DNA of 64,000 bases, from positions 1 to 64,000 of the forward strand of contig JBNGIO010005439.1 in the NCBI GenBank assembly GCA_049999805.1. The letters run 5' to 3'. The notes under the pieces are model-generated. The model worked only from the letters and a program-made list of their open reading frames with translations, ran no database searches and was not told where the DNA came from. This document shows positions 12,215-15,463 of the stretch, piece after piece (positions within the stretch are counted from its first letter, which is position 1; each line of letters starts with the position of its first letter). The position numbers and the translations under genes are program-made. This DNA comes from Folioceros fuciformis (lineage: Eukaryota).

Positions 12215-15200
12215 TCATGGTCGACCCTTACAACTGCAGCAACCGGCACTGAAACGATGCACACGATACCCATCCCTCACAACAATCTCCCTCTTCTCAA
12301 CCCTGGATATGATCTCCGTGGAACTGTGACAGTCACTACACATCCTTAGATTCTTGGTAACTACCAGAGGTGTGCCCCCCGGAGTGTTCAAAAGGCCATA
12401 CGCTAGAGCTAGCTTCTCTGCATGCCCGCAAAGCGTGTCTTCCTTCGCCTTTTCAGGCAGTGCCTTCAGCACCAATTTTGTGTGTGGCACGTGGCCCCCT
12501 TCCTCCATCACGCGTCCACTCATGTTCTCCACCTCGACGCCGATGTCGTGCCTGCTTTCTCCGACCCTAAATGTATGTACCTGCTTCTTAACCTCAATGC
12601 TCGCCACTGCAGGTTTCTTGTTAGCACCTGCTAACAGTCTGCGTTTTTCAATCCTCTCTACATCGCCCCACTTACCAGCATCTGCACAGGCATTCGCCAT
12701 GAGCACATATGCCGACGCACACTGAGGCTCCAGTGTAATGAGACTTTCGTAACATCGTGTTGCCCTCGCTATGTCTCCGTAACTTCTGCAGGCATTCAGC
12801 AACGACATCAACCCCACAACATTGCTTCTGCTGTCACATGATAATGGCATGTTCTCTGCCTCCTCTAAATGGCCTGCACGCCCAAGAAGATCAATCATGC
12901 AATTGTAATGCTCAACAGTAGGCTTGACGCCATGCTGCTCGACCATGGAATCGAAGTACTTGCGACCCTCGTCGACCAGTCCCTCGTGACTGCATGCTAC
13001 CAAGAGGCAAGTGAAAGCAGCATCATCGGGCTGAATACCCGCGACTAACATCTCCTCGAAACAAGCTAGAGCGTTGTGACCTTCATCGCAACTGCCGTAC
13101 CCAGATATGAGGGCAGTCCACGTCACCACATCCTTTGTGCCCAAGCTGTCAAAGACCCTGCGTGCATCTTCCAGTTCACCACACTTCGCATACATGTCTA
13201 CCAGGCAGTTGCCCACCAGTATGTTCTCCAGCTGGCCTCTTTCCATGATCTGCGAGTGCAGCTGCCTGCCCTTCTGCAAGGCACCAGCGCCTGCACATGC
13301 CTTCAGAAGGCAAGAAAGAGTAACATGATTCCCCAGCATGATACCCTCCTGCTCCATTTCTCCATGAAGGACAAGCGCCTCGTGATTGAACCCATGATTT
13401 GCATACCCGGCTATCAGGGCCGTCCATGTCACAACATCCTTCGTGGTCAAGCTCTCAAAGACCCTCCGTGCATCTTCTAATTCACCACATTTTGCATACA
13501 TGTCCACCAAGGAGTTGCCCACCAGCGCGTTATCTACCTGTCCTCGTTCTATAATCTGCGAATGGAGCTGCCTCCCTTTCTGCAACGCACCAGCAGTTGC
13601 GCACGCCTTCAGAAGGCAAGCGAAAGTAACCTCATCAGCCACAATCAAGTTCTGCTGTTCCATTTGTTCATAAAGAGCAAGCGCCTCTTGACCAAGCACA
13701 TGATTTGCATACCCAGCTATAAGAACTGTCCATGTCACCACATCCCTTGAGGTCAGGCTGTCGAACACCATTCGAGCATCTTCCAGTTCGCCACATTTTG
13801 CATACATGTCCACCAGGCAGTTCCCGACCAGCATGTTATCTAACTGCCCTCTTTCCACAATCTGTGAGTGCAGCTGCCTGCCCTTCTGCAAAGCACCGGC
13901 GCTTGCACAGGCCTTCAAAAGACAAGCAAAAATGACATGATCAGCCACAATGAGGCCGTCCCGCTCCATTTGAGCATACAAAACAAGAGCCTCTTGGCCG
14001 AGCCCATGATTTGCATACCCAGCTATCAGGGCCGTCCATGTCACAACATCCTTCTTTGCCAAGCTGTGAAAAGCCCGGCGGGCATCCTCCAGTTCGCCAC
14101 ATTTTGCATACATGTCCACTAAGCAGTTGCCCACCAGCATATTTTGTAGCTGTCCTCTTTCCACAATCAGCGAGTGCAGCTGCCTGCCCTTCTGTATGGC
14201 ACCAGCACTTCCACAGGCCTTCAGAAGACAAGCAAAAGTAACATGGTTTCCACTGATTCGGCCCTCCTGCTCCATCTCTCCATATAGAACAAGCGCCTCT
14301 TGACCGAGACCATGATTTGCATAACCAACTATCATGGTCGTCCATGTCACCACATCCTTCGTGGGCAAGCTGTCAAAAACCCGTCGAGCATATTCCACTT
14401 CGTCACATTTTACATACATGTCCACCAGGCAATTGCCAACATATAAGTTGGAGAGAAGGCTACTGCGCAACACATCACAATGCACCTCTCTGCCAGATTC
14501 CAAGTCCGCTGCAAATGCACAAGCTTGAAGAACTGCTACAAAGACGTGAGCATTTGCCTCTACACCTGAGCTGCGCATCTCATGGTACAGTTGTATGGCC
14601 CGTCTGGGTCTTCCATGTTTAGCATAGGTGGAGATTATGGAAACCCACATGAAGGCATCTGGTTTGCCCACCCTGGTGTACACATCCATGGCCTCCTGTA
14701 GCCTACCACCACATGCGTACATGCGCAGAATATGGTTCCCCAAGAATGCATTCGACTCATAGCCAAGTCTGACGGAAAGATCATGAACTCGTTGCCCCGA
14801 AACCAGGTCCTTCTTAGCTGCACATAGTTTCAGCACAGAAGAAAAGAGAGACTGAGAAATAGGGCAGTGGGCCTGCGCCAGAGCTTCCATGGCTCCAACG
14901 GCCTCCGCAAGCTCCCCTTGCTGGCATAACGTGCTCACGGTTCCAGACGATACGACAGCCATTTCCGATTCAGCACGCCTGCCGGGTCGTTTGGTCTTAT
15001 CCGAAGAGCTCGACTTGCGAGGGCATGCACCGTTTCCCATCTGCATCGTCAAAGAAAGGAGCTGATCATCCACCCACTCTGGCTTCAACATGTTGCATAA
15101 CCAGAGGACCTCGCCGGATACCTTATGCCGAAAGTCAGGCGAACCAGAGCTCTTCTTACCTCCCCTCTCATCCCACCACATGGGAGGGTCCAAAAAGAAT

Positions 15201-15463
15201 TGTCGCCACAAGGACTCCTGCTTCTGCTCCTGCTCTTGCAGTTGGTCACCAATACTGCTGGACACTCCTTTCCCAACAGTCCGTTTTTTCGGAAGTGCTG
15301 GCTTCATCCCCGTGCCGACCGAGACTTGCCTGCTTGACGTCGGTTGACTACCTGCAATGAGGTGAGGAGAATTTCTTCGTTGAGGAGCTGTATTCAACCG
15401 CTCCAGTTGCCAAGGTATTGGCATCCTAACAGACGCTCGTCTTCGTAAGAATGGGTGGAACAA
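12215..15463 (-). CDS. PLS-class PPR protein with E1/E2 and a DYW:KP (KPAxA, GRP-terminal) deaminase domain plus an N-terminal OSB-type PDF motif; candidate organellar U-to-C RNA editing factor
   Basis: Uninterrupted 1082-codon ORF with about 20 P/L/S repeats, KKPAVASIEV in place of PGxSWIE, HAEKLA and CSDCH zinc ligands, and terminus CSCKGRP. The true start is uncertain: the ORF begins at TTG; the first ATG is at 15424, or there is an upstream exon. Confidence 0.93.
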   Translation of the reverse strand: MFHPFLRRRASVRMPIPWQLERLNTAPQRRNSPHLIAGSQPTSSRQVSVGTGMKPALPKKRTVGKGVSSSIGDQLQEQEQKQESLWRQFFLDPPMWWDERGGKKSSGSPDFRHKVSGEVLWLCNMLKPEWVDDQLLSLTMQMGNGACPRKSSSSDKTKRPGRRAESEMAVVSSGTVSTLCQQGELAEAVGAMEALAQAHCPISQSLFSSVLKLCAAKKDLVSGQRVHDLSVRLGYESNAFLGNHILRMYACGGRLQEAMDVYTRVGKPDAFMWVSIISTYAKHGRPRRAIQLYHEMRSSGVEANAHVFVAVLQACAFAADLESGREVHCDVLRSSLLSNLYVGNCLVDMYVKCDEVEYARRVFDSLPTKDVVTWTTMIVGYANHGLGQEALVLYGEMEQEGRISGNHVTFACLLKACGSAGAIQKGRQLHSLIVERGQLQNMLVGNCLVDMYAKCGELEDARRAFHSLAKKDVVTWTALIAGYANHGLGQEALVLYAQMERDGLIVADHVIFACLLKACASAGALQKGRQLHSQIVERGQLDNMLVGNCLVDMYAKCGELEDARMVFDSLTSRDVVTWTVLIAGYANHVLGQEALALYEQMEQQNLIVADEVTFACLLKACATAGALQKGRQLHSQIIERGQVDNALVGNSLVDMYAKCGELEDARRVFESLTTKDVVTWTALIAGYANHGFNHEALVLHGEMEQEGIMLGNHVTLSCLLKACAGAGALQKGRQLHSQIMERGQLENILVGNCLVDMYAKCGELEDARRVFDSLGTKDVVTWTALISGYGSCDEGHNALACFEEMLVAGIQPDDAAFTCLLVACSHEGLVDEGRKYFDSMVEQHGVKPTVEHYNCMIDLLGRAGHLEEAENMPLSCDSRSNVVGLMSLLNACRSYGDIARATRCYESLITLEPQCASAYVLMANACADAGKWGDVERIEKRRLLAGANKKPAVASIEVKKQVHTFRVGESRHDIGVEVENMSGRVMEEGGHVPHTKLVLKALPEKAKEDTLCGHAEKLALAYGLLNTPGGTPLVVTKNLRMCSDCHSSTEIISRVEKREIVVRDGYRVHRFSAGCCSCKGRP

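Follow-up and report, generated by a model that had tools for sequence, protein, structure and literature searches.

The usual picture of a plant organelle editing factor is a presequence followed by a PPR array, with a deaminase at the C-terminus. One locus of Folioceros fuciformis raises the question of whether such a factor can also carry a single-stranded DNA (ssDNA)-binding module, and whether that module reaches the protein. The locus lies in a 64,000-nt stretch of DNA (assembly GCA_049999805.1, contig JBNGIO010005439.1, positions 1 to 64,000; hereafter the window). An earlier note on this DNA, made from the letters alone, had described at 15059-15214 a PDF motif of the kind found in the organellar ssDNA-binding OSB proteins, fused to a putative U-to-C editing PPR protein. 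Herein, we make three points. First, an OSB-type PDF domain is encoded in frame with a PPR-E-DYW:KP protein. In addition, proteins that join PDF and PPR occur in several other plants. Finally, the PDF-coding sequence of this locus holds an intron, and a PDF-bearing product at this locus is not secure.

The PDF-coding segment and its host protein

The minus-strand translation of 15059-15214 is exactly the 52 residues that the earlier note had quoted. They stand in frame in an uninterrupted open reading frame (ORF) of 1069 amino acids (aa), 15424..12215 on the minus strand. Numbering from the ATG at 15424, the first in frame, makes them residues 71-122, and the position of about 84-135 given before was off by 13. 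The nearest in-frame stop upstream lies 24 codons before this ATG. The window belongs to a eukaryotic nuclear genome, and spliced genes flank the locus on either side. A six-frame motif scan of the 64-kb window found no second PDF motif, and the exact 1069-aa ORF was not present in a collection of 15 billion proteins. The features of the locus are listed here with the evidence for each; pLDDT is the predicted local distance difference test, and X1 is a set of RNA contigs described below.

12215..15424, minus strand: 1069-aa ORF, stop included, with presequence, PDF domain, linker, PPR array, E motif and DYW:KP domain (ORF and Pfam)
15425..15530, minus strand: transcribed 5' leader, at least to 15530, with a short upstream ORF of 17 codons (X1 record 4 extends to 15530; upstream ATGs)
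15254..15424, minus strand: residues 1-57, basic, rich in Ser/Thr and predicted to be disordered, probably an organelle presequence (pLDDT, composition)
15032..15253, minus strand: PDF domain, residues 58-131, predicted to fold as a helix, three short strands and a helix (profile, alignment, AlphaFold2)
15044-15232, minus strand: PDF profile match, residues 65-127 (profile search)
15041..15159, minus strand: 119-nt intron ("exitron") inside the PDF-coding sequence (X1 record 4; splice-site sequences)
15169..15171, minus strand: exon-1 ATG, four codons before the junction and in the PPR frame only after splicing (reading of the spliced mRNA)
15038..15040, minus strand: ATG of Met129, with which exon 2 opens (sequence)
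14948..15031, minus strand: residues 132-159, low-confidence Ser/Lys/Arg-rich linker from the PDF domain to the first PPR helix (pLDDT 50-69)
12782..14947, minus strand: PPR array of the PLS class, residues 160-881 (Pfam PPR and PPR_2; predicted helices from residue 160)
12617..12781, minus strand: E motif region, residues 882-936 (Pfam E_motif)
12218..12616, minus strand: DYW:KP domain, 133 aa, residues 937-1069 (Pfam DYW_deaminase and defining residues)

We compared residues 60-130 with 1.84 billion representative proteins by phmmer and obtained 512 matches at E<=1e-3, of which 108 reached E<=1e-10 and 15 reached E<=1e-30. The top matches hold 2-13 tandem PDF copies. The matches include proteins named by NCBI as "protein OSB1, mitochondrial-like" (Populus nigra) and "organellar single-stranded DNA binding protein 3" (Euphorbia peplus). 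When the best 150 of the 512 matches were scanned with the 8 longest excluded, the Pfam SSB family was present in 37 of 142. A jackhmmer search seeded with the Populus OB region, with the PDF repeats masked, found an OB-like region in 73 of the 138 non-PPR matches. A strict PDF profile was made from the 190 repeats of these 73 OB-region-bearing proteins. The window's motif scored 67.6 bits over profile positions 2-62 of 64, in a test that is strong and not fully independent, its members having originally been found via the window's motif. In a 26-sequence alignment, the window keeps all 10 invariant columns (W73, P80, W84, D85, R87, P96, D97, L107, W108 and W117), and its Pro-Asp-Phe signature is P96-D97-F98. 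No Pfam family matches the N-terminal PDF motif. As judged by this homology, the segment is a genuine OSB-type PDF domain, and the assignment made in the earlier note holds.

The predicted structure is in keeping with a discrete domain. AlphaFold2 modelled residues 60-130 alone (26-row alignment) at a mean pLDDT of 91.2, as two helices that flank three short strands, the strands lying at W-W-D, F-R-H and L-W. In the context of the 330 N-terminal residues, residues 58-131 were predicted at pLDDT 91-96. In the same model, residues 1-41 were below 50 (residues 1-50 in the range 43-52), residues 132-159 were at 50-69, and PPR helices began at residue 160. Because the domain is predicted at such high confidence between low-confidence flanks, the PDF module is, in this model, a separate folded unit of about 70 residues on a flexible tether of about 28 residues. 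Residues 1-64 contain 9 R+K, 3 D+E and 12 S+T. A Foldseek search of the PDB gave no match to the PDF domain at E<=0.001, and the ESM Atlas gave no usable match to it. VIA-align against 48,161 chains reached a best Z of 4.6, inside the background; no solved relative was found, which does not imply a novel fold.

The remainder of the ORF was assigned by Pfam and by defining residues. PPR (PF01535) matched at 7e-92 in 12 stretches and PPR_2 at 3.7e-88, followed by E_motif (5.1e-10, residues 882-944) and the DYW deaminase (1.1e-31, residues 977-1067). The deaminase domain has its K-P start at 937, HAE at 1001, CSDCH at 1029, a Lys at domain position 88 and a C-terminal KGRP. According to the parts of PMC9478123 and PMC11845758 consulted, DYW:KP domains are recognised by K-P in place of the P-G of the PG box, by HAE(x)nCxxC and by a conserved Lys88, and a C-terminal GRP marks the variant described from hornworts. 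The GRP-type DYW:KP is the kind of domain shown to convert U to C. With a PPR array, an E motif and the full residue set of the GRP-type DYW:KP, a putative U-to-C editing PPR protein is a fair description of the host by sequence, and the label given to it in the earlier note was apt.

The central PPR array (12800-14800, minus strand) consists of near-identical units of about 105 aa, long stretches of which are repeated four- to fivefold. Contigs from three related organisms stack on this region in numbers that range from hundreds to thousands, with many apparent joints that result from repeat and paralogue cross-mapping. The array fits recent internal duplication or gene conversion within a very large PPR family.

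The window protein shares with OSB proteins a PDF domain of about 50-60 residues with the signature W..F..P..WWD.R..K....PDF.HK....LW....P.WV; excerpts of PMC6963530 describe the motif as about 50 aa with a conserved Pro-Asp-Phe signature. It differs from them in three respects. OSB proteins have an OB-fold/SSB-like domain, whereas the window protein has none. OSB proteins carry 1-5 PDF copies at the C-terminus, whereas the window protein carries one at the N-terminus. The partner of the PDF domain is an OB fold in OSB proteins and a PPR-DYW RNA editor in the window protein. Membership of the host protein in the OSB family was considered and rejected, as Pfam finds no SSB/OB domain in it and residues 1-57 are predicted to be disordered. 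The hornwort GRP-variant DYW:KP factors, from which the designer KP2/KP3 are known, have the same PLS-type PPR array, E motif and 133-aa DYW:KP domain. The window protein adds to this set a folded N-terminal domain, and none is described for DYW:KP factors in the parts of PMC9478123 and PMC11845758 consulted.

PDF-PPR proteins in other plants

Given this architecture, its recurrence bears on whether the fusion is peculiar to the window. When the best 150 of the 512 matches were compared by phmmer with the PPR region of the window protein, 12 proved to be PPR proteins; the homologue search added P0173 as a 13th fusion. Pfam confirmed PPR in 7 of the 142 scanned, and 4 more PPR proteins were among the 8 longest that had been excluded. 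The figure of 12 in 150 is a lower bound, because several short single-PDF matches run on into PPR-like sequence by eye. The fusions include the following.

CAM6033764.1, Sphagnum compactum: PDF, PPR and a canonical DYW domain ending in D-Y-W (DYW:PG)
XP_024517303.1, Selaginella moellendorffii: PDF and PPR, without DYW
KAI5076972.1 and KAI5061374.1, Adiantum capillus-veneris: PDF and PPR, without DYW
KAJ7542616.1 and KAJ7231026.1, Diphasiastrum complanatum: PDF and PPR, without DYW
P0119 and P0173, Logan assemblies: PDF, PPR and a GRP-type DYW:KP
P0006, Logan assembly: three PDF copies and PPR

The closest relatives of the window protein are P0119 and P0173, with 46-51% identity over the N-terminal 330 residues, and the protein homologue search found no orthologue above 51% identity. 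P0119 was matched at 1.5e-10 by phmmer with residues 60-130 and at 2.2e-86 in the homologue search. Its PDF motif is decayed (46.9 bits), with P-D-F changed to R-D-F. P0173 is a continuous ORF of 950 aa on a 3660-nt contig, and P0006 is one of 1371 aa on 4755 nt. By sequence, the PDF-PPR architecture is widespread in seedless land plants, and hornworts are probably among its carriers, judged by the GRP-type domain. The earlier note had associated the fusion with U-to-C editors. It is not specific to them: it also occurs on the DYW:PG protein of Sphagnum and on the DYW-less PPR proteins of Selaginella, Adiantum and Diphasiastrum.

We placed 202 repeats on a FastTree phylogeny, 185 OB-linked and 17 PPR-linked, with the repeats of unclassified proteins excluded. 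The PPR label required 5 changes on this tree, compared with a mean of 16.5 in shuffled labels, and none of 500 shuffles was as low. The five rows nearest to the window repeat were all PPR-linked. Two simpler marks of PPR linkage were discarded. A five-residue spacing from L-W-L to P-x-W-V was found in 14 of 14 matchable PPR-linked repeats but also in 29 OB-linked ones, and net charge gave no separation of the two groups.

Two further observations concern the match list. The PDF-PPR models P0115 and P0153 of Selaginella moellendorffii start 2-3 residues before the PDF domain, without a presequence; either the start codons were annotated wrongly or the module serves in this species without organelle targeting. 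In the long matches P0047 and P0038, an OSB-like OB region and PDF repeats are joined to unrelated sequence at the C-terminus. On visual inspection, this sequence resembles a kinesin motor in one of the two (1526 aa) and an extended coiled coil in the other (1063 aa). Both may represent additional PDF fusions or chimeras of gene models.

PPR proteins with a second nucleic-acid-related module are known, and in RRM-PPR proteins such as PPR4 the additional binder is also N-terminal. The accessory domains recorded for Physcomitrium PPR proteins are RRM, LAGLIDADG, SMR, NYN (PRORP), CBS and SAP, with no PDF (PMC9459714). The main text of a study of editing factors over 364 genomes does not mention PDF among their fusions (PMC13386178). 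A 2026 survey of OSB proteins required OB and PDF domains, according to the part of PMC13393729 consulted; PDF-PPR proteins would be excluded from it because both domains were required. The openly searchable literature, which does not cover subscription papers, yielded no paper linking the PDF motif with PPR or DYW. Within that literature, the impression in the earlier note that this architecture had not been characterised agrees with ours.

An intron inside the PDF-coding sequence

Three sets of assembled contigs were compared with the locus. X1 was taken as RNA of the same organism, and X2 and X3 as RNA of two related species. The assignment of X1 to the same organism follows from its contigs matching the window with 0-1 mismatches over 373-763 nt. 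We infer that X1 is RNA because the two GT..AG introns of the neighbouring Vps51-like gene are skipped and because depth is zero over the intergenic bins 12005-12205 and 15623-16024. All three sets were read as assembled contigs, and contigs drop rare variants.

X1 record 4 (763 nt, depth 15.3, 0 mismatches) aligns to 14649-15040 and to 15160-15530. It is the sole same-organism contig of this locus across the junction, and it skips 15041-15159. The skipped segment is a 119-nt GT..AG intron on the gene strand. Its donor is GAG/GTAAGA (the slash marks the junction) and its acceptor end is TTTCTTTGACGATGCAG/ATG (GATGCAG/ATG). Its GC fraction is 0.51, and both its length and its GC resemble those of the neighbouring gene's introns of 75 and 94 nt. 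Splicing deletes residues 90-128 and 2 nt of codon 89, that is, 39 of the 52 residues quoted in the earlier note, including P-D-F. The length of 119 nt is not divisible by three, so that the reading frame is shifted as well. Once the mRNA is spliced, the ORF from ATG 15424 terminates after 102 codons, and the PPR frame starts at ATG 15171-15169 to give a 945-aa PDF-less ORF behind seven upstream ATGs. A PDF-bearing protein requires intron retention, because the splice removes P-D-F and shifts the frame.

These data divide what the earlier note had said of the locus. That the motif shares its frame with the PPR array is correct for the DNA. That it lies in the same exon is contradicted by the sole same-organism transcript contig, which joins 15160 to 15040. 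The note had named excision of the segment as an outcome that would count against the fusion, and such excision was found in part, for the 39 residues given above.

Position 15096, inside the intron, is covered at >=90% identity by 2 contigs of X1, 6-7 of X2 and 4 of X3, and X3 record 15 is continuous from 15013 to 15156. These contigs place the PDF-coding sequence in RNA contigs of close paralogues or orthologues. Within the window, the intron-encoded part keeps all of its invariant PDF residues and has no stop. An exitron, as Marquez et al. reportedly used the term in 2015, is an intron inside a protein-coding exon. The present intron resembles exitrons in being a canonical GT..AG intron wholly within an open frame that encodes a conserved protein, with spliced RNA observed. 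It differs in that its length is not a multiple of three, so that splicing shifts the frame instead of deleting a peptide, and in that the spliced form alone was seen.

The reading that we prefer is that both mRNA forms exist and that the unspliced one yields the PDF-PPR-DYW:KP protein; we give it a probability of roughly 0.45. The unspliced mRNA would be translated into the full 1069-aa protein. In the spliced mRNA, the PDF domain would be destroyed, and the product would be either that of the 102-codon upstream ORF or that of the 945-aa PDF-less PPR ORF. The PDF-bearing protein would be made solely from the intron-retaining fraction. In favour of a PDF-bearing product, the 128 codons upstream of Met129 are open in the PPR frame, for which we estimate the chance at about 0.002 with 3 stops per 64 codons.

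Several observations weigh against this reading. The spliced form came through assembly unbroken, which suggests that it is the dominant isoform. At 15096-15097, both X1 contigs that cover the site carry paralogue letters, and a retained form with the window's own letters was not seen in X1; given the loss of rare variants from contigs, its absence is not implied. The domain itself departs somewhat from its relatives. Its 67.6 bits are below the PPR-linked median of 74.1, and its net charge is -1 compared with an OB-linked mean of +1.4 +/- 2.0, within the spread. Glu replaces the near-universal Asn of the W-W-D-N-R stretch, and Cys follows L-W-L where paralogues have Asn. On the tree, no well-supported clade contains the window repeat, and the clustering of PPR-linked repeats may reflect taxon (seedless vs seed plants) and not one fusion event. 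Finally, OSB1 and OSB2 are reported, in the part of PMC4166229 consulted, to prefer ssDNA to double-stranded DNA or RNA, and because of this preference there is no direct reason to expect an RNA role.

A less probable reading, which we regard as doubtful, is that the PDF stretch is a relic that now serves as 5' leader and leader intron. The product would then be the 945-aa PDF-less PPR-DYW:KP protein, and the intact frame would reflect the recent origin of the intron. In its favour, the sole same-organism contig is spliced; the intron has strong canonical sites (GAG/GTAAGA ... CAG/ATG) and resembles the introns of the neighbouring gene in length and GC, and an ATG stands at the very start of exon 2. 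With 7 R+K, 3 D+E and 11 S+T, the basic and Ser/Thr-rich residues 129-165 could be a presequence. The two consensus departures just described are lineage-specific and, like the score below the PPR-linked median, suit a decaying domain, and the paralogue P0119 shows that decay of the PDF motif is possible in this family. However, the 945-aa ORF stands behind seven upstream ATGs, including that of the 102-codon ORF, which is a poor setting for translation. The 128 open codons before Met129 and the intactness of all invariant PDF residues, those encoded in the intron included, also speak against a relic.

Unlikely, in our view, is the constitutive fusion put forward in the earlier note, in which the locus mainly produces the 1069-aa PDF-PPR-DYW:KP protein and the spliced contig represents a minor or aberrant isoform. 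The domain is intact and in frame, the relatives P0173 and P0006 are predicted as continuous ORFs on mRNA-length contigs, and RNA contigs of paralogues keep the region. Nevertheless, it was the spliced path that assembled, at a depth of 15.3, and no contig with the window's own letters was seen across the intron; a frame-shifting isoform that dominates the assembly is unlikely to be noise. An artefact, whether by chance similarity, mis-assembly or a chimera of adjacent OSB and PPR genes, has only general risk in its favour, the assembly gaps being distant (100 N at 2620-2719 and 400 N at 53410-53809), and is effectively refuted by a raw continuous ORF that involves no gene model, the 67.6-bit profile match, the RNA contig that matches both flanks with 0 mismatches, and the same architecture in at least four named species and several further assemblies.

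Other features of the window were recorded as well. Transcription of the PPR gene and of a Vps51/Exo84-N-domain gene on the opposite strand diverges from a common stretch of about 620 bp (15531-16150), and contig depth is zero between 15623 and 16024. The Vps51/Exo84-N-domain gene starts with an ATG at 16251, and its introns at about 16451-16525 and about 16665-16758 are spliced in X1, X2 and X3. An intronless 622-aa ORF at 47574-49442 (minus strand) encodes a Suv3-type RNA helicase (DEXQc_Suv3 7.1e-69, Helicase_C, SUV3_C). The GC content of this ORF is 38%, as is that of the 48-52 kb bin, compared with about 50% for the remaining window; the composition suggests a recent insertion, a retrocopy or a foreign origin. 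A 517-aa WD40 ORF at 21785-23338 (minus strand, 63% GC) overlaps a 648-aa antisense ORF at 21938-23884 (plus strand), which is probably a by-product of the high GC.

Possible role of the module

What the PDF domain might do on an editing factor can be considered from OSB proteins. The parts of PMC6963530 and PMC4166229 consulted report that AtOSB1 needs no more than its PDF motif to bind ssDNA. The PDF domains are credited with most of the ssDNA affinity of OSB proteins (reviews PMC6963530, PMC4166229 and PMC13393729, in part), and OSB2 is described as a tetramer (excerpts of PMC6963530). If the module behaves as in OSB1, it would give sequence-independent single-strand affinity at the 5' side of the PPR array, and the editing factor would be retained at nucleoids or nascent transcripts. 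The earlier note had also raised tethering to R-loops and action on ssDNA, both of which, like tethering to nucleoids, are conjectural. The PPR array would give site specificity, and the DYW:KP domain would supply the chemistry. By analogy with OSB1, recruitment to nucleoids or nascent transcripts would be the simplest reading, and a role of the module in RNA binding or protein contacts is equally open.

A specific form of the latter is that the PPR-linked PDF domain binds RNA, or mediates protein contacts such as self-association or docking to OSB proteins or the nucleoid, and does not bind ssDNA. We consider this form improbable. The module is always at the 5'-side end of an RNA-binding array, and the tetrameric state reported for OSB2 would suit a contact role. 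Selaginella moellendorffii has PDF-PPR proteins, and no OSB protein is given for it in the list of a 2014 review (PMC4166229, in part). Because of that listing, the module in Selaginella would not act via an OSB partner. The sufficiency of PDF for ssDNA binding by OSB1 and the ssDNA preference of OSB1 and OSB2 stand against this alternative.

Returning to recruitment, a broader version of it can be formulated, which we hold to be quite unlikely. PDF-PPR proteins would form an ancient class of organelle RNA-processing and editing factors in seedless land plants that has gone unrecognised. Through their OSB-derived ssDNA-binding module, the PPR-DYW enzyme would be anchored to the nucleoid or to the strand displaced in transcription bubbles, and C-to-U and U-to-C editing would be coupled to transcription. 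The exitron would let the locus alternate between an editor that is tethered and one that is untethered or not translated.

The exitron has a practical consequence, in that catalogues of PPR architectures based on ORFs can misstate the expressed products. Natural DYW:KP proteins are the source of designer U-to-C editors, and a natural domain that alters substrate capture would interest that field. If the fusion is true, an N-terminal module from organelle DNA maintenance would be the first physical link of editing factors to ssDNA or nucleoids. Mosses, lycophytes and ferns carry the module, as hornworts probably do, and it could be relevant to the place and time of editing.

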